Shown one piece after another: positions 17,533 through 24,625 of a stretch of DNA of 64,000 nucleotides. Location: positions 562,286 to 626,285 of the forward strand of contig CAWGQE010000003.1 in assembly GCA_963824705.1 (NCBI GenBank). The letters run 5' to 3'. Each line of letters starts with the position of its first letter. The first letter of the stretch is position 1. Both the position numbers and the translations under genes were made by a program. The stretch comes from an uncultured Solirubrobacterales bacterium. Its GTDB lineage: Bacteria > Actinomycetota > Thermoleophilia > Solirubrobacterales > 70-9. The notes under the pieces are model-generated. The model ran no database searches. It saw only the letters and a list, made by a program, of their open reading frames with translations, and was not told the DNA's origin.

Positions 17533-18291
17533 ATGATGCGGCCAATGAGCGATGCTGATGAGCAAGCGTTGATCCGGCGCTACCGCACCGCGCGACGCGA
17601 TACGCAGCTCGCTGTGCTCGAGGGATTTCACGCGCTCAAGCACGCGTTGCGCTTCGGTGCCGAGGTGCTCGAGGCGGTTGCTGCCGATCCGGCGCGGCTA
17701 CGCGAGCTCGCCGCCGAGCTGGCTCCGGACCTCGGCGACGCGCTCGCCGAGCGCACCTCCCCTGTCTCCGCCGAGTTGATCGCCGGGCTGGTGCCGCAGG
17801 CACCGCGCACCGGCGTCGTCGCGATTGCCCGCCGGCCGGAGATCGACCTGGCCGCGGTGCTCGCAGGACAAGCGCCGGCGCCGCTCGTCCTGCTCGAGGA
17901 CCCGCGCACGATGGGCAACATGGGGGCCTGCGTGCGGGTCGCCGCCGGCGCCGACGCCGCCGGGGTGCTGACCGTCGGTCCAAACGATCCCTGGCATCCC
18001 GACGCGTTGCGTGGAGCCGCCGGGCTCCACTTCGCCCTGCCGGTGGTCGGGGTCGAGGAGTTGCCGGCCGGCGACCGGCCGCTGATCGCGATCGACCCCG
18101 GCGGGGAGGACCTCCGCCCGGCCGAGCTGCCGCTGCGCGCGATCCTCGCCTTCGGCACCGAGCGCTACGGTCTCAGCGCCGATCTGCTCGACCGCGCCGA
18201 TGCCCGTCTCGGCATCCCGATGCGCCCCGGCGTGTCCAGCCTCAACCTGGCCACTGCGGTTGCCGCGGTCTTATTTGCTCAGCGGCTTTAG
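17533..18291 (+). CDS. SpoU/TrmH-family RNA 2'-O-methyltransferase
   Basis: LEGFHALKHAL, LLEDPRTMGNMGA..R, FGTERYGLS and IPM..GVSSLNLATAVAAVLF are SpoU motifs 1-3. The ATG at 17533 is preferred over the ORF-track start at 17029. Confidence 0.8.
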   Translation: MMRPMSDADEQALIRRYRTARRDTQLAVLEGFHALKHALRFGAEVLEAVAADPARLRELAAELAPDLGDALAERTSPVSAELIAGLVPQAPRTGVVAIARRPEIDLAAVLAGQAPAPLVLLEDPRTMGNMGACVRVAAGADAAGVLTVGPNDPWHPDALRGAAGLHFALPVVGVEELPAGDRPLIAIDPGGEDLRPAELPLRAILAFGTERYGLSADLLDRADARLGIPMRPGVSSLNLATAVAAVLFAQRL

Positions 18292-18457
18292 AACCCTGTG
18301 CCAAAACTCCCGCGCACGTCTGGCGGCGCCGGACACACTGCGCGGTGCGGCGTCCTCAGTCGGCCAAATAGCGCTGCTATTCGGCCTCCCTGCGTCCTTG
18401 CCCCGCTTGGTCCGGCACTCACCAGCCGCACACGCGAGTTTTGGCACAGGGTTCTAA
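18288..18457. repeat. 170-bp palindromic MITE-like element
   Basis: Perfect 22-bp termini: TTAGAACCCTGTGCCAAAACTC (18288-18309) and GAGTTTTGGCACAGGGTTCTAA (18436-18457). The internal arms are imperfect, with an apical hairpin GGCCAAATAGC-GCT-GCTATTCGGCC. TA lies at both outer ends. Confidence 0.6.
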
Positions 18458-19025: not shown

Positions 19026-20237
19026 ATGCGTCCTCCTGCCGGTACCTCCCGGTGGCTGTTGCTTCCGGCCGCCCTGCTCTTCCTCGTGCTCTGCCTCGTG
19101 GCGAGCGCGCCTGCCAAGACCCTGAGCGAAAAGCTCGACTCGACCCAGGGCAAGCTGAGCCATGTGCGCGAAAGCCAGAGCGCGCTCTCGGCGACGATCG
19201 AAGAACAGAACAAGGCGATCGACTCTATGCTCGGCGAAGTCTCGCGGCTGCGCCAAGAACAGCAGGCGCTCGAATCCGAACTGACGAGCAAGCAGGATGA
19301 ACTCGACAGCGCCACGGCGAAGCTCGAAGCCGAGCAGCGCCGCTTGGAAGCGATCCGCGAACGCCTGCAGCGGGCGCTCGACGCGTTGCGCGAACGGCTC
19401 GTCTCGATGTACGAGGCGGGCAGCCCCGACGTGGTCAGCGTCGTGCTCGAATCGGAGACCTGGTCGCAGGCCAGCGCCCGGGCCGAATACCTGAGCCGCG
19501 TCCAGGACTACGACGACTCGGTCGCCGACCGGGTCAAGGGCCTGCGCGACGAAGCCAAGGCAGCGGTCGAACGGATGGCTGCGATCAGGGCGCAGCTGAA
19601 GGAAGCGCGCGACGAAATCGCCGCCAAGGAGCAAGAAGCGTCCAAGGCGAGCGCCGAAGCCGCGGCGCGCTTCGCCGACCTCAAGGAAGCCCAGGCGCAG
19701 CGCCAGGGAGAGCTCGAATCGCTCGAGTCGCGCGAACAGGCGCTGAGCGACAACCTCTCGGCGATCTCCGAACAGCTCGCGAGCGCCGGCGCGCCGGTCG
19801 CGACCGGGACGCCGGCACCGCTCACCCCGGGGCAGAGCGCCGAATACATCTCCGAAAGCCAGGCGAGCGTGCCGAGCGCCGCGCCGCCCGCGGTGCAGGC
19901 GGCGATCGAAGCCGCCAACTCGATCGCCACCACCCCCTATATCTGGGGCGGCGGTCACGGCTCGTTCGAATCGGAAGGCTACGACTGCTCGGGGGCGGTC
20001 AGCTTCGCCCTCAACGGCGGCGGCTTCCTATCCAGCCCGCTCGACTCGACCGGGCTGGAGACCTGGGGCGACCCCGGTCCCGGTCAGTGGATCACGGTCT
20101 ACGCCAACGCCGAACACGCCTGGATGATCATCGCCGGCCTCGCCTTCGACACGGTCGGCGGCCCGGGGCCGCGTTGGCATCCGGAACTTGTGGACTCGCC
20201 CGAAGGGTTCATTGCGCGGCACCCGAGCGGGTATTGA
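19026..20237 (+). CDS. Secreted coiled-coil + NlpC/P60-like (C40) cell-wall hydrolase
   Basis: Signal peptide, about 230 aa of heptad-rich coiled coil, and a C-terminal PYIWGGGHG...YDCSGAVSFAL...AEHAWMII (Cys/His catalytic pattern). Confidence 0.7.
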   Translation: MRPPAGTSRWLLLPAALLFLVLCLVASAPAKTLSEKLDSTQGKLSHVRESQSALSATIEEQNKAIDSMLGEVSRLRQEQQALESELTSKQDELDSATAKLEAEQRRLEAIRERLQRALDALRERLVSMYEAGSPDVVSVVLESETWSQASARAEYLSRVQDYDDSVADRVKGLRDEAKAAVERMAAIRAQLKEARDEIAAKEQEASKASAEAAARFADLKEAQAQRQGELESLESREQALSDNLSAISEQLASAGAPVATGTPAPLTPGQSAEYISESQASVPSAAPPAVQAAIEAANSIATTPYIWGGGHGSFESEGYDCSGAVSFALNGGGFLSSPLDSTGLETWGDPGPGQWITVYANAEHAWMIIAGLAFDTVGGPGPRWHPELVDSPEGFIARHPSGY

Positions 20238-20354
20238 GCGCCTCTCCCGGTAGGGCTTTCACTTAACTTTTTCGGTGGATCGTCGGTGGGCTGACGCCCG
20301 TGAGCCGACACCGAAAAAGTACAAGACGTTCCAGCCCTACCGGGAGAGGCGCTC
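20236..20354. repeat. Structured palindromic intergenic repeat, copy A
   Basis: Perfect 22-bp outer stem GAGCGCCTCTCCCGGTAGGGCT / AGCCCTACCGGGAGAGGCGCTC. Conserved blocks at 20247-20277 and 20311-20343 are shared with copy B. The element contains the stop codons of both convergent genes. Confidence 0.7.
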
Positions 20355-21003
20355 AGGCTCGGGCGCTTGCGAGGTCGGTGAGGTAGCTGGGGAGCTCGAT
20401 GTCGGGGAGGAGGCGGTCGTCGGGCTTGGGTGAGCTGGCGGCAATTCGTAGGTCGATCGTTCCGGCCCAGACCGGCAGCTCGTAGTCTTCCTCGTCGTCG
20501 AGGGGGCCGCCCTCTCGCACCTTGGCGGAGGCCTCCTCAAGCGGCAGGCGCAGCACCCCGACCGCCCGTAGCTCTTTCTCTGTCGGTAGACGAGCGTCGC
20601 CCCAGCGACCCGGTACGAGCTTTTCGGTGAAGGCTTCGAGCGCCTCGCGTTTGCCGGCGCTTGTCTCGATCTTCTCGGCCTGACCGAAGACGACGACGGA
20701 GCGGTAGTTGACCGAGTGGTGGACGGCCGAGCGGGCCAGCACGAGCCCGTCGAGCAGGGTCGCGGTCAGGCAGATCTCGGCTTGCGCCGCGCGACGCAGC
20801 GTCGGACTCGCCGCCGAGCCGTGGATGTAGAGCCAATCTCCGGCGCGCGCATGCAGGGTGGGGATGACGATTGGATGACCGTCGGGAGCAACCGTGCCGA
20901 CGTGGGAGACGATCGCCTCGTCGAGGATCGCCTCGATCGTCGCGCGCTCGTAGTCGGCCCGGCTGGGCATCCGCGTGACTCTGGTTCTTGGCCTTGCCGC
21001 CAT
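20353..21003 (-). CDS. Pyridoxamine 5'-phosphate oxidase-family FMN-binding protein
   Basis: The split-barrel family pattern (ILDEAIVSHVGTV.PDGHP.VIPT...GD.LYIHGS..S) is present. The ATG at 21003 lies 5 nt after AAGGAGG. Confidence 0.8.
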   Translation of the reverse strand: MAARPRTRVTRMPSRADYERATIEAILDEAIVSHVGTVAPDGHPIVIPTLHARAGDWLYIHGSAASPTLRRAAQAEICLTATLLDGLVLARSAVHHSVNYRSVVVFGQAEKIETSAGKREALEAFTEKLVPGRWGDARLPTEKELRAVGVLRLPLEEASAKVREGGPLDDEEDYELPVWAGTIDLRIAASSPKPDDRLLPDIELPSYLTDLASARA

Positions 21004-21152
21004 CCCCGCCTCCTTAAATCTGTTACAGTACAAATCTGCCTACTGAAGTAACACAGTATCGAATAACGGGCGAAGGTGCGGGCGAGATCGCCGCCAGCGT
21101 CGAGCGGGGGATAGAAACGGGCGAGCTGCGCCCGGGCTCGCCGCTGCCGGCG

Positions 21153-22367
21153 GTGCGCTCGCTCGCGAGCCAGCTCGGCGTCAGCCCGACGACGGTCGCT
21201 GCCGCCTTCAAGGACCTGCGCTCGCGCGGCCTCGTCATCACCCGTGCACGCAGCGGAGCCATCGTCAGCTGGCGACCGCCGGTTGCCGGCGCCTGGATAG
21301 GCACGCTGGCACCAGCGAGCGCCCGCGACCTCTCCAGCGGCAACCCCGACCCCGAGCTGTTGCCCGACCTGACGTCGGTTCTGCGCCGGATCGAGCCACC
21401 GCGCCAGCTCTACGGCGGCGACCCGGCGGATCCGCTACTGCTCGAGCTGGCGCGGGCGGAGCTGGAGCGGGACGGGATAGAGGCCGAGGACGTCGCCGTG
21501 GTCAACGGCGCCCTCGACGGGATCGAGCGCGCCCTGGCGGCGCAGTTGCGACAGGGAGACGTGGTCGCGGTCGAAGATCCAGGCTTCGCCGGGCTCTTCG
21601 ATCTATTGCGCGCGCTGGGGCTCGCGCTGCGCCCGGTGGCAATCGACCGGAAGGGAATGATCCCCGCGGCACTCGCGGACGCCCTCGACGACGGTGCGAG
21701 CGCGGTGGTGCTCAACCCCCGCGGCCAGAACCCGACCGGCGCGTCGCTCGACGAGGAGCGCGCCGCGGAGTTGAAGCACGTCCTCGACCGAAACCCGGAG
21801 ACGATGGTCCTCGAGGACGATCACCTCGGCCCGATCGCCGGTGCGCCCCGGCTGACGCTGACCACCGGGCGTACGCGCTGGGCAGCAGCCCGCTCGCTCG
21901 CGAAGTCCCTGGGCCCTGACCTCCGCCTGGCGGTCCTGGCCGGCGACCCCCACACGATCAGCCGCGTCCGCGGCCGTCAGGCCGTAGGCCCCGGTTGGGT
22001 AAGCCACCTGCTCCAGCGCACGGCAGCGACGCTCTGGGCAGATTCCAAGATCGCCCGCAACCTGGAGAAGGCCACCACGACCTACAGCAAACGCCGCGAA
22101 GCTTTCATCTCGGCCCTGGCCAACCACGACATCGAGACCCAGGACTCAAGCGGCCTAAACGTATGGATCCCAGTCCCCGACGAGACCAGCATCGTGCAGG
22201 CACTACAGACCCAAGGCTGGGCCGTGGCCCCGGGAGCCCCCTTCCGCCTCCAAGCAGAGCCAGCAGTCCGAGTAACCATCAGCACCTTGCAAGCTGACGA
22301 GACGCCAGCGTTGGCCGCCGCAATCGCTCGGGCCCTACAACCATCCCCCCGAACGCGCCCCGCATAA
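21153..22367 (+). CDS. MocR/GntR-family regulator (wHTH + PLP aminotransferase-like domain); true start unresolved
   Basis: SLASQLGVSPTTVAAAFKDLRSRGLV is the GntR recognition helix, followed by a fold-type-I aminotransferase-like domain. The HTH continues in frame upstream of the first canonical start (see finding). Confidence 0.8.
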   Translation: MRSLASQLGVSPTTVAAAFKDLRSRGLVITRARSGAIVSWRPPVAGAWIGTLAPASARDLSSGNPDPELLPDLTSVLRRIEPPRQLYGGDPADPLLLELARAELERDGIEAEDVAVVNGALDGIERALAAQLRQGDVVAVEDPGFAGLFDLLRALGLALRPVAIDRKGMIPAALADALDDGASAVVLNPRGQNPTGASLDEERAAELKHVLDRNPETMVLEDDHLGPIAGAPRLTLTTGRTRWAAARSLAKSLGPDLRLAVLAGDPHTISRVRGRQAVGPGWVSHLLQRTAATLWADSKIARNLEKATTTYSKRREAFISALANHDIETQDSSGLNVWIPVPDETSIVQALQTQGWAVAPGAPFRLQAEPAVRVTISTLQADETPALAAAIARALQPSPRTRPA

Positions 22368-22479
22368 AGCCCCATCCGGTAGGGCTGAAACGTCTTGTAC
22401 TTTTTCGGCGTCGGCCCCGGGCGACAGCCGTATGCGATTCACCGAAAAAGTTAAGTGAAAGCCCTGCCGGATGGGGGCT
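22368..22479. repeat. Structured palindromic intergenic repeat, copy B (inverted relative to A)
   Basis: Blocks 22376-22408 and 22440-22470 are the reverse complements of copy A blocks (32/33 and 30/31 identical). The element fills the entire gap between two convergent stop codons. Confidence 0.7.
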
Positions 22480-23871
22480 CTACGCAGGCGCTTCGCCGCC
22501 CTCGACCGGCCGCCCTTCAGCCTGCCAAGTCCCGACGCCACCCCGCGCAACGTGAATCGTCGAGAACCCCTCACGCTGCAAAACCGAAGCCGCCAGCCCA
22601 CTCCGTTTGCCCCCCTTGCAGATAGTCGCCAAGGCCCGGTCGCGCGGCAGCTCGTCGAGGCGCCGCGCCAACTCTCCGTAAGGGATGTGGAGCGAGCCGG
22701 CGATGTGCCCGTCGGCGTACTCGCCCGCCCCGCGCACATCGAGGACTAGCGGCGGCTCATCGCCATCCAGCAGCCCCGCGAGATCGTCGGGCCCGATCGG
22801 CTCGATCCGGGCAACCGGGCGCTCTTCCGCCCGCCAGGCGCTCATCCCGCCGCCGAGGAAGCCGCGCACCCGCAGCCCGACCGCGGCGAGCAGCTCCGCC
22901 GCCTCGAGCTCGTTGCCGTCCGAAGCGGCGACGACGACGATCTCACCGTCGGGCGGGACGACCTGGGCGACCTTGGTGGCGAAGCCGGTGTCGTAGCCGG
23001 AGGCGCTGATCGCCCCGGGGATGTGCGCCTCGTCGAACTGCTCGTTGGTGCGCGAGTCGACGGCGAAGGCGCCGGCGGCGATCGCCGCCTCGAAGCGGCG
23101 CGGGGTCAGCGACGCGGGCGAGCCGATCGACTCGACCAGCGGACCGCGGTTGAGGGAGACGATGTGCTCGACGTTCGGCGGCCGCTCGCCGATGCTGGCA
23201 ACCGCGTCCTCGACGAACTCGGCCTCGTCGATCAGCGCCAGCGCCCGGTTGTGGCGCCGCTCGAAGCCGATCGTCGAGGAGGTCTTGAGGTCGATGCCGG
23301 AGCTGCCGCAGAGCGAGCCGCCAAGGTGGCCCGGCCAGACCTCGACCTCGTCGGGGAGGGAGAGCAGCCGCTGGTGCAGTGAGCGGAAGATGTCGGCGGC
23401 GCCTTCACGTGGCTCCACTGCCAGGTCGGGCCGGGCGACGTCGCCGACGAAGAGCGAGTCGCCGCTCAATACCGCCACCGGATCGCCACCCCGCTCGGCG
23501 TCGCGGAGCAGGAAGGAGGTGTGCTCGGGCCGGTGACCGGGGGTGTGGATCGCCTCGATCGAGACCCCACCGCCGAGCTCTAGCGTCCAGCCGTCGTCGA
23601 AAGCTTCGTGCTCATACTCGGCCTCGGCCAGTGCGTTGACGTGGATCGCCGCCCCGCTCGCCCGGGCGAGGCGACCGTGGCCGGAGACGTGGTCGGCATG
23701 GTTGTGGGTCTCCAGCACGTGCTCGATCCGCACACCGTGCAGGCGGGCGAGGTTCACGTAGGGGTCGATGTCCCACTGCGGATCGACCACCGCCGCGACG
23801 CCGGCACCCGGGTCGCCGACCAGGTAGGAGGCGCAGCCGAGATCCTCGTGGATTATCTGCCGGAAAAGCAT
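22480..23871 (-). CDS. Metallo-beta-lactamase-fold (persulfide-dioxygenase-like) protein fused to two rhodanese domains
   Basis: MLFRQI...ETHNHADHVSG (HxHxDH), then two rhodanese-like halves, the second with the active-site loop CKGGKRS. The start is at 23871 (MLFRQ) or 23889. Confidence 0.8.
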   Translation of the reverse strand: MLFRQIIHEDLGCASYLVGDPGAGVAAVVDPQWDIDPYVNLARLHGVRIEHVLETHNHADHVSGHGRLARASGAAIHVNALAEAEYEHEAFDDGWTLELGGGVSIEAIHTPGHRPEHTSFLLRDAERGGDPVAVLSGDSLFVGDVARPDLAVEPREGAADIFRSLHQRLLSLPDEVEVWPGHLGGSLCGSSGIDLKTSSTIGFERRHNRALALIDEAEFVEDAVASIGERPPNVEHIVSLNRGPLVESIGSPASLTPRRFEAAIAAGAFAVDSRTNEQFDEAHIPGAISASGYDTGFATKVAQVVPPDGEIVVVAASDGNELEAAELLAAVGLRVRGFLGGGMSAWRAEERPVARIEPIGPDDLAGLLDGDEPPLVLDVRGAGEYADGHIAGSLHIPYGELARRLDELPRDRALATICKGGKRSGLAASVLQREGFSTIHVARGGVGTWQAEGRPVEGGEAPA

Positions 23872-23971
23872 GTTTTCCCCGTCAACCATCGGGTAAACGG
23901 TTAGAGCACGATAGCCCTCGGTCGGGGCACCCTTCCTGTATCGGGGGCCGGCTACCGAAAAGGAGGGCATC

Positions 23972-24625
23972 ATGGAGTCAGCAACGATCCGCGGTCGTGA
24001 GCCGACCGCAGGCGACACGGGACGGCAGGCAGTCGGAGCCGTCCACGTGCAGGAGGGGTGGAGCCCCGCCGACCCCGGGCCGCTGGGGCTGGCTGCTTTT
24101 GCGCTCACCACCTTCGTCCTCAGCATGTTCAACGCCGGCCTGGTCAACAGCGCCGGTGAGCCCGTGGTGCTCGGTCTGGCGCTGGGCTACGGCGGTATCG
24201 CCCAGATCCTCGCCGGGATGTGGGAGTTCCGTACCGGCAACACTTTCGGCGCCGTCGCCTTCACCTCGTTCGGTGCCTTCTGGCTCTCCTTTTGGGCCTT
24301 TGTCACCTTCTTCGCCGGCGACATCCCGGCGGCGCACGTCGGCGCTTCGGTAGGCCTCTACCTGATCGCCTGGGGCATCTTCACCACCTACATGTTCGTC
24401 GCCTCGCTGCGCACGACCGCGGCGGTCGCCGTCGTCTTCTTCCTGTTGGCGATCACCTTCTTCCTGCTCGGGATCGGCAACTCGAACGAAACCGAGGGTC
24501 TGATCGAAGCCGGCGGCTGGTTCGGTCTGGCAACGGCGGTCGCTGCCTGGTATGCATCTTTTGCGGCGGTGACCAACTCGACCTTCGGACGGACTGTCCT
24601 GCCGGTCCGTCCGCTGCGTCGCTGA
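23972..24625 (+). CDS. satP: GPR1/FUN34/YaaH-family acetate/succinate channel
   Basis: ADPGPLGLAAFALTTFVLS plus six TM helices; RBS AAAGGAGGG upstream. It lies immediately upstream of acs. Confidence 0.85.
   Translation: MESATIRGREPTAGDTGRQAVGAVHVQEGWSPADPGPLGLAAFALTTFVLSMFNAGLVNSAGEPVVLGLALGYGGIAQILAGMWEFRTGNTFGAVAFTSFGAFWLSFWAFVTFFAGDIPAAHVGASVGLYLIAWGIFTTYMFVASLRTTAAVAVVFFLLAITFFLLGIGNSNETEGLIEAGGWFGLATAVAAWYASFAAVTNSTFGRTVLPVRPLRR

Follow-up and report, generated by a model that had tools for sequence, protein, structure and literature searches.

Here we describe a ~120-nt hairpin repeat, two copies of which (A and B) lie between convergent genes in a 64,000-nt stretch of contig CAWGQE010000003.1 from an uncultured Solirubrobacterales bacterium; this whole 64-kb stretch is referred to as the window. 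According to Pfam, the genes around the two copies encode, in order, a coiled-coil protein, a Pyridox_ox_2 (PNPOx-like) protein, a MocR-type regulator (GntR plus aminotransferase) and an MBL-fold protein with a rhodanese domain. The features, in window coordinates, were delimited with nhmmer, a covariance model (CM), minimum free energy (MFE) folding and alignments of the repeat family:

20235-20355, + strand: copy A, the whole hairpin including both convergent stops (TGA 20235-20237; TCA 20353-20355); outer inverted repeat, nhmmer, CM, MFE
20235-20257, + strand: copy A outer stem, 5' arm TGAGCGCCTCTCCCGGTAGGGCT, pairing with 20333-20355; inverted repeat, fold, family covariation
20258-20267, + strand: copy A 5' internal loop TTCACTTAAC; invariant columns (CTTAAC invariant)
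20268-20277, + strand: copy A inner stem P2, 5' strand TTTTTCGGTG, pairing with 20309-20318 (CACCGAAAAA); T5CG/CGA5 pairs invariant in 60 + 104 copies
20278-20308, + strand: copy A variable apical hairpin, tip GGGCTGACGCCC; sequence and length vary among copies, with genome-specific subtypes
20319-20332, + strand: copy A 3' internal loop GTACAAGACGTTCC, within which GTACAAGACG is near-invariant; family alignments
20333-20355, + strand: copy A outer stem, 3' arm AGCCCTACCGGGAGAGGCGCTCA; inverted repeat
22365-22482, - strand (element orientation): copy B, from the MocR TAA (22365-22367) to the CTA of the rhodanese/MBL gene (22480-22482); nhmmer, inverted arms, fold
20356-21033, - strand: PNPOx-like gene (Pyridox_ox_2, Pfam E 5e-39), a bystander outside the element
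21018-22367, + strand: MocR-type regulator (GntR helix-turn-helix plus aminotransferase fold; Pfam), a bystander

A preliminary description of the sequence had reported that A and B carry nearly identical inverted arms, that each folds into a long hairpin, and that each reaches from one convergent stop codon to the other, with both stops of copy A inside the stem; all of this is borne out. The arms of A and B are mutually reverse-complementary over 36 nt at 94% (20247-20282 vs 22435-22470) and over 47 nt at 89% (20304-20350 vs 22369-22415), and each arm pattern occurs exactly twice in the window, where shuffled sequences give an expectation of 0. The outer stem of copy A is a perfect 23-bp inverted repeat (20235-20257 / 20333-20355) that contains the TGA of the open reading frame (ORF) 19026-20237 and the TCA (minus-strand TGA) of the PNPOx ORF 20353-21033. 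Copy B occupies 22368-22479; on one side is the MocR TAA (22365-22367, ORF 21153-22367), on the other the CTA at 22480-22482, which is the stop of a minus-strand 555-aa gene (ORF 22480-24147). Each copy folds as one long hairpin far more stable than its shuffles, at -82.1 kcal/mol for A (z -9.3) and at -65.6 and -64.8 kcal/mol for B (z -6.4 and -6.9). The nhmmer core of copy A (20245-20345) scores 90.8 bits and its CM match 133.5 bits; that of copy B (22376-22470, with inverted arms at 22370-22386 / 22460-22476) scores 78.6 bits. The differing centres and copy-specific outer stems noted earlier are present, but they are not peculiar to these two copies: centres vary throughout the family, and the outer stems are part of the repeat.

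The search for further copies proposed in the preliminary description was positive. BLAST of copy A against its own genome (G000; 2.67 Mb, four contigs, 68% G+C) returned 40 further matches, and iterated nhmmer brought the total to 60 copies of the hairpin repeat. The family reads [T(A/G)], an outer stem of ~20 bp (consensus rGAGCCCATCCCGGTAGGGGT), the loop TYCRCTTAAC, the inner stem TTTTTCGGTG and a variable apical hairpin of ~30-35 nt, followed on the 3' side by CACCGAAAAA, the loop GTACAAGACGYTYC, the 3' arm of the outer stem and finally [(T/C)A]. Within the 5' loop, the A at 20261 in copy A pairs with the T at 20329, a position of purine-pyrimidine covariation (AU 45 / GC 13 in the own genome; GC 56 / AU 47 in other genomes). 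Conserved blocks lie in the interior of the element, and the outermost ~10 bp change from copy to copy, though the two ends of each copy are mutually inverted. Eight copies, whose outer stems are quite unlike those of the rest, make up a subfamily (CTCAAC ... GTACAAGCCG). A relaxed scan also recovered a sister family of the form GCTGGG-TTTTTCGCC ... GGCGAAAAA-CAGGACGCCGC, with 16 copies in the own genome and 11 in contig 1 (1.85 Mb; G018:C1) of G018, the close relative used for comparison. It shares with the main family only the T5CG/CGA5 stem and the ACA(A/G)GACG 3' loop, and its outer stems look like those of the CTCAAC subfamily. Its own-genome copies lie outside the window:

Sister family, first eight copies: G000:C3:100538, 241196, 332283, 392164, 472403, 472561, 978406, 1088000
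Sister family, remaining eight copies: G000:C3:1089205, 1251514, 1385087, 1437329, 1566901, 1678828, 2036778, 2038212

An Rfam scan of 19500-23500 yielded no real family, the single hit being a chance match to MIR839 (26 bits vs a gathering score of 200, E 0.027). No match to the repeat was found in plasmid and phage collections, and no description of this repeat family was found in the literature.

The fold is conserved well beyond what the two window copies could reveal. RNAalifold on the 60 own copies gave 33 pairs, 21 of them with compensatory changes. Among 104 copies gathered from other genomes with the covariance model (alignment cut-off E<=1e-12), 96.5% of cells hold standard pairs, compared with 77.9% in shuffles and 38-54% for slid partners, and both sides have changed in 26 of the 33 pairs (600 doubly changed cells vs 156 in shuffles), counts that lean toward the model structure because the alignment was fitted to it. 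Covariation is present in all 20 outer-helix pairs, and the T5CG/CGA5 pairs never vary in these foreign copies. The covariation check asked for in the preliminary description thus gave strong support in both sets of copies, and its view of conserved unpaired loops with covarying outer stems agrees with the family alignments: the element is not a plain hairpin, and belongs to a structured repeat family with invariant loops and covarying stems. The covariation is DNA-like in flavour. G-U pairs are rare in the outer helix, where GC<->CG swaps are as common as GC<->AU; outside the innermost helix G-U (~39) is not above A-C (~50), and folding is slightly more favourable for the minus than for the plus strand. 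Because neither these counts nor the folding energies give a signal, no single transcribed strand is singled out. Orientation relative to replication followed no pattern, the GC skew being too weak.

Comparison of filled and empty sites indicates where the element sits. Both flanks of 42 of the 60 own sites are syntenic in G018:C1; six of these are filled there, two are affected by large rearrangements and the remainder lack the element, with ~30 of the 42 being empty. Where the flanks of an empty site align cleanly, what is left is a TA within stop codons:

Copy A junction, in G018, G005 and G007: empty, TAC-TAG-CTC / TAC-TAG-ACG, the convergent stops overlapping as CTAG
C3:847938: empty sequence CTAG
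C3:1310257: empty sequence CTAG
C3:1083592: empty sequence CTAA
C3:706609: empty sequence TTAG
C3:676476: empty sequence cATAGc

Such overlaps are common among convergent genes of the genus: the two stop codons share a TA (as CTAG, CTAA or TTAG), and no intergenic DNA remains in which a terminator could lie (L151:4545-4560, L153:1485-1500 and L152; G018, G005 and G007). Filled sites read T-A-[R...Y]-T-A, as in copy A of G009 (TAT-TA[GGCGTC...GACGCC]TA-GTC) and at C3:847938 (ATC-TA[GCGGAGCC...GGCTCC]TA-CTC), with TA...TA flanks likewise at 1255263, 1790081 and others. Copy A itself and its G008 counterpart read TG[A...T]CA, that is, TAA/TTA changed to TGA/TCA on both arms, so that the pairing and both stops are kept. 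At fixed offsets, about half of the copies (27-33 of 60 own, 47-56 of 82 foreign) have T[A/G] as their left and [T/C]A as their right boundary, and TA makes up 1.2% of dinucleotides genome-wide. Duplication of a TA and entry of an A...T-ended element between T and A look alike, because T-A-X...X'-T-A is itself palindromic. At least one neighbouring stop codon lies inside the hairpin in 43 of the 60 copies, both in 15, and 16 genes end on stops supplied by the core (the TAG in GGTAGGG or the TAA in CTTAAC). By crude ORF calls, 27 copies are in convergent contexts, 18 in tandem contexts pointing in the direction of the upstream gene, seven in tandem contexts pointing the opposite way and eight in "divergent" contexts, which are probably mostly ORF miscalls.

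We also considered whether the outer stems derive from the target, through insertion into pre-existing hairpins. This was rejected for the main family, as the clean empty sites hold no palindrome beyond CTAG. One odd case is the miaB/miaA junction (G000:C3:1278832-1278929), where 13 nt of MiaB coding sequence, AGCGGGGTGTCGG, recur inverted beyond the element (CCGACACCCCGCT). This stretch is conserved at the protein level in G018, which has only a solo main-family arm there (GTAAAGCCCATCCCGGTGTGA), and the case is not explained by simple TA insertion.

Several loci bear signs of site re-use and concerted change. At the copy A junction, G004, G014, G011 and G010 carry an unrelated hairpin, TGA-GACGTGCC...GGCACGTC-TGA (L154:1440-1500, L155:1390-1450, L156, L162), one relative of which is found outside the window at G000:C3:1359881-1359930, and copy B of G004 is of another subtype; several hairpin families apparently make repeated use of junctions between convergent stops. 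Five of eight G018 copies and both G008 copies share an extra base within the T run (AACTT[C]TTTCGG, with G instead in one of the G008 copies); it is found at three loci orthologous to own copies that lack it, and in the own genome in one of 60 copies. Six orthologous own/G018 copy pairs provide 263 stem pairs, of which 234 are unchanged, 21 carry a single change and eight a double change. As far as sequence comparison can tell, any of three processes could account for these patterns: the fold may be under selection, sequence may be converted between arms or between copies, or one element may replace another at the same TA. In several genomes, plus- and minus-oriented elements lie 320-370 bp apart around one conserved short coding stretch (...GLSPGLLSAGLGSVPAEQTYLDISQGNRVFDSLY...), at L039:4553-5082, L045:7215-7720, L085:4131-4682 and L142:1321-1855; the gene between these closely spaced elements was considered as a transposase and rejected, the pairs representing a single conserved orthologous locus.

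The preliminary description had further proposed that the inverted pair delimits a 2.1-kb PNPOx/MocR module able to move or invert as a unit. A and B as the ends of such a composite or invertible unit would account for the inverted copies that bracket the two genes, and for the presence of the module in some genus genomes and its absence from others. The comparison with relatives went the other way, and we regard this explanation as very improbable. The module occupies this locus in eight genus genomes, always in the same orientation and with copy B at its junction in all eight; only three of them (G000, G008 and G009) have copy A, which is missing from G018, G005, G007, G004 and G014, and no inverted module was found among the genus genomes compared. 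In at least eight module-less genomes the outer genes are directly convergent with no element between them, so that no repeat scar is seen in eight of nine; in the ninth, G015, the module is apparently missing and one element sits at the junction. The different subtype of copy B in G004 also speaks against a single unit. Since the module stands uninverted without copy A, the repeats neither brought it in nor flip it, and the distribution of module, copy A and filled junctions across the genus makes A and B independent insertions at two convergent junctions.

The repeat has a narrow and uneven distribution. An exact-pattern scan of species-representative genomes found more than 117 loci, nearly all in metagenome-assembled genomes of Solirubrobacterales/Thermoleophilia. 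The pattern is present in 85 of 101 sampled genomes of the window's genus, with 0 to ~50 matches each, and absent from 11 genus genomes that are at least 90% complete. In a 301-genome sample of the order it occurs in this genus and three more genera of the same family (f1), with one match in family f4, and was not found in the other four sampled families of Solirubrobacterales. A CM search of 120 order genomes gave 0, having scored 28 of thousands of candidates per genome, and was discounted in favour of the exact-pattern survey. Apical sequences group by genome, with one subtype (CCGAAGACAG...) in G318, G215 and G198 and another (GGTGGAGACG...GGAATTGCC) in G012, which indicates lineage-specific amplification.

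Taken together, these data make it likely that A and B were inserted independently and that both belong to a ~120-nt non-coding palindromic repeat, an orphan MITE-like element (MITE, miniature inverted-repeat transposable element) confined to one clade within a Solirubrobacterales family; the repeat is probably mobile. It is below ~400 bp, non-coding and multi-copy (60 copies), and has both filled and empty orthologous sites. According to the proposed mechanism, the element would integrate at a stop-codon TA, with the TA duplicated or an A...T-ended element entering between T and A; a purine start and a pyrimidine end would then rebuild both stop codons. With both stops rebuilt, insertion would be nearly neutral, which may be why copies "exactly fill" convergent gaps. 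A putative trans-acting protein would read the folded hairpin via the invariant core (the T5CG/CGA5 stem with the CTTAAC and GTACAAGACG loops); recognition via this core rather than the ends is suggested because the ends vary freely. Once settled, a hairpin of -65 to -85 kcal/mol would stand at the 3' end of one or both transcripts, where its predicted stability makes it probably a barrier to 3' exonucleases or read-through. REP (repetitive extragenic palindromic), ERIC and SPRITE repeats offer precedents for such a barrier or stabiliser role at 3' ends (PMC3184786, PMC10969869).

A number of observations count against an origin by mobile insertion. Unlike in classical MITEs, conservation is lowest at the termini. 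Only a minority of copies have clean TA...TA flanks; many have TG...CA instead, or TT/TG on the side without a stop. Not all G018 sites without the element are bare: a sister-family element occurs at some, a short TA-flanked hairpin or solo arm at others, and because several "empty" sites keep such short hairpins or a solo arm, losses must occur alongside gains. Six of the eight double changes between orthologous copies keep Watson-Crick pairing, compared with ~0.4 expected if sites were independent, an excess that could be due to selection by the host on the structure and not to selfish spread. Searches with PF01797, PF13358, PF01609, PF00589, PF07282, PF01548 and PF00665 linked no transposase to the family: Y1/RAYT proteins (PF01797) number 0 in the own genome and 0 across the 101 genus genomes, with control genomes scoring; the IS630 DDE_3 domain is absent from the own genome and present in 17 of 101 genus genomes, unrelated to copy number; and TnpB and IS110 are absent from the own genome by profile searches. 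The terminal repeats of IS630 elements (GTGACCTGAGTCGTT, CTACTCCGG..., GGGTCTGATACCGG...) are unrelated to the element arms, as are the ends of a resident four-copy rve insertion sequence (TGGTCTTCCCCCGG). No solo arm, autonomous element or long element with these arms was found in the own genome, G018:C1 or the 117 foreign loci, and thus no autonomous insertion sequence with matching ends.

Other mobile sequences are present in the genome. The rve insertion sequence, apparently the only active one, exists as four identical copies of ~1.28 kb with ends TGGTCTTCCCCCGGTT...AACCGGGGGAAGACCA, encoding a 324-aa rve-type transposase (L273-L276 = G000:C3:533109, 754798, 1187089, 1633643). There are five tyrosine recombinases, and the sole DDE_Tnp_1 gene is a degenerate, frame-broken remnant (L261:550-2131, G000:C3:1964172 region). 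Within the window, 18288-18457 holds a 170-bp palindromic element with ~8 full or partial genome copies (T-TA|GAACCCTGTGCC...GGCACAGGGTTC|TA-A), which is a second TA-flanked MITE-like family in a genome without an IS630 transposase.

IS630 transposases prefer CTAG and duplicate TA. The repeat could be regarded as a MITE of the IS630/Tc1-mariner type with TA as its target, mobilised by IS630 transposases that visit the genus occasionally and act in trans. The empty sites, which are TA within CTAG-like tetranucleotides, agree with this, as do the IS630-family copies with TA flanks in those 17 genus genomes (up to 13 per genome) and the other TA-flanked palindromic MITE families of the same genome. 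It is nonetheless an improbable account, given that the 60-copy genome has no DDE_3 gene, that G009, G012, G194 and G204 hold 31-50 copies without an IS630 hit and G161 and G139 hold IS630 without copies, that the terminal repeats do not match, and that a DDE transposase binding terminal repeats would be expected to need conserved ends. Movement as a REPIN/REP system by a RAYT (Y1 HUH) transposase is suggested by the two inverted arms forming a long hairpin with GTAG/CTAC inside them (GGTAGGG / CCCTACC), by the extragenic position, often between convergent genes, and by the co-evolution of the arms. With no PF01797 protein in the own or 101 genus genomes, where controls scored, no gene flanked by copies in the manner of RAYT, and arms that are not autonomous short palindromes like REP units, this explanation comes close to being refuted. 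We also examined integron attC sites as a candidate. In these, an R'' box (RYYYAAC) and an R' box (GTTRRRY) pair at the base of the hairpin, and the cassette arrays adjoin intI. The candidate was rejected, as ACTTAAC of the element conforms to RYYYAAC but stands opposite GTACAAG, the two are located 20 bp within the stem, and copies are singly dispersed (intI was not sought).

It is also conceivable, although we consider it unlikely, that the hairpin is primarily a structured RNA or 3'-end element selected by the host. With a protein bound to its conserved loops, the transcribed hairpin would bring convergent transcription to an end or insulate it, or else stabilise the mRNA upstream, and its spread would be secondary. 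Copies stand directly after stop codons, loops are invariant and stems covary, orthologous copies show the excess of compensated double changes given above, element-less convergent genes overlap at their stops with no room for a terminator, and 18 of the tandem copies are oriented with the upstream gene vs 7 against it (two-sided binomial p ~0.04). Yet congeners carry anywhere from 0 to 50 copies, the 11 nearly complete genomes among them having none, the close relative lacks the element at ~30 of the 42 syntenic sites, the outer helix lacks strand-specific wobble and the minus strand folds slightly better. Nor is there a U tract after the stem in either direction at A or B, where a terminator scan flags nothing. 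A bidirectional intrinsic terminator is thus not supported; moreover, the polarity of the T5 and A5 runs is wrong for one, and within the hairpin the two runs are base-paired. Of the earlier suggestion of a functional, bidirectional-terminator or REP/BIME-like element, a structured repeat family that is "REP/BIME-like" in the broad sense therefore stands, and the canonical bidirectional terminator does not.

Along with the favoured reading of independent insertions of a mobile repeat, we put forward, as a much less likely possibility, that the invariant core common to the main family, the CTCAAC subfamily and the 16-copy sister family (the T5CG/CGA5 stem plus the asymmetric loops ...CTTAAC and ACA(A/G)GACG) is a docking site for a putative protein, forming a RAYT-independent, REPIN-like system that homes to overlapping-stop TA. 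Such a protein, neither RAYT nor DDE, would read folded single-stranded nucleic acid and mobilise or process the hairpins, and the arms would be kept complementary at the DNA level by arm-to-arm or copy-to-copy conversion.

Among known systems, the element is best placed as an orphan member of the palindromic dispersed repeats, failing the RAYT test for a REPIN and the parent-insertion-sequence test for a classical MITE. ERIC is a ~127-bp imperfect palindrome, an orphan hairpin repeat in transcribed intergenic DNA near gene ends with variable copy number and no known transposase (PMC10969869). The present element resembles it in being an orphan non-coding hairpin repeat of ~120 bp near gene ends whose copy number varies between related taxa, but has no sequence similarity to it, is invariant in its internal core and not at its ends, inserts at stop-codon TA and resides in Solirubrobacterales. 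Correia/NEMIS of Neisseria and RUP of pneumococcus are likewise small palindromic repeats, and mobile ones. Both are TA-associated. The terminal inverted repeats conserved in Correia and RUP were not seen in the element, nor were the IHF site and promoters of Correia, and no related insertion sequence was found for it. Transcripts of Correia and RUP fold into long hairpins, which in the case of Correia are processed by RNase III (PMC10969869). The bcr1 repeat of the Bacillus cereus group, dispersed, ~155 bp long and non-conserved in its genomic distribution, also retains its fold through compensatory changes (PMC3184786), but has 5-bp direct repeats and a cruciform-like multi-stem fold, unlike a single long hairpin at a stop-codon TA. 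REPIN/REP sequences combine two inverted arms in a hairpin, are extragenic and often between convergent genes, and behave as populations within genomes (PMC3116915, PMC3337134, PMC3184786); the element differs from them by the lack of RAYT in 101 genomes and by arms that are not short REP palindromes. SPRITE of Streptococcus pneumoniae resembles a Rho-independent terminator, whereas the element has no U tract after its stem.

From the standpoint of the host, the repeat shapes gene ends in a widespread, uncultured group of soil actinobacteria. At least 16 genes here owe their stop codons and C-terminal residues to it, and it places very stable hairpins at ~60 transcript ends; annotators would be advised to mask it. 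If the target is an overlapping-stop TA and both stops are restored, this would account for the low cost at which a palindromic element can build up in a compact genome. The combination of a conserved interior, free ends, no known hairpin transposase and signs of concerted evolution might lead to a new protein that mobilises or binds such hairpins.

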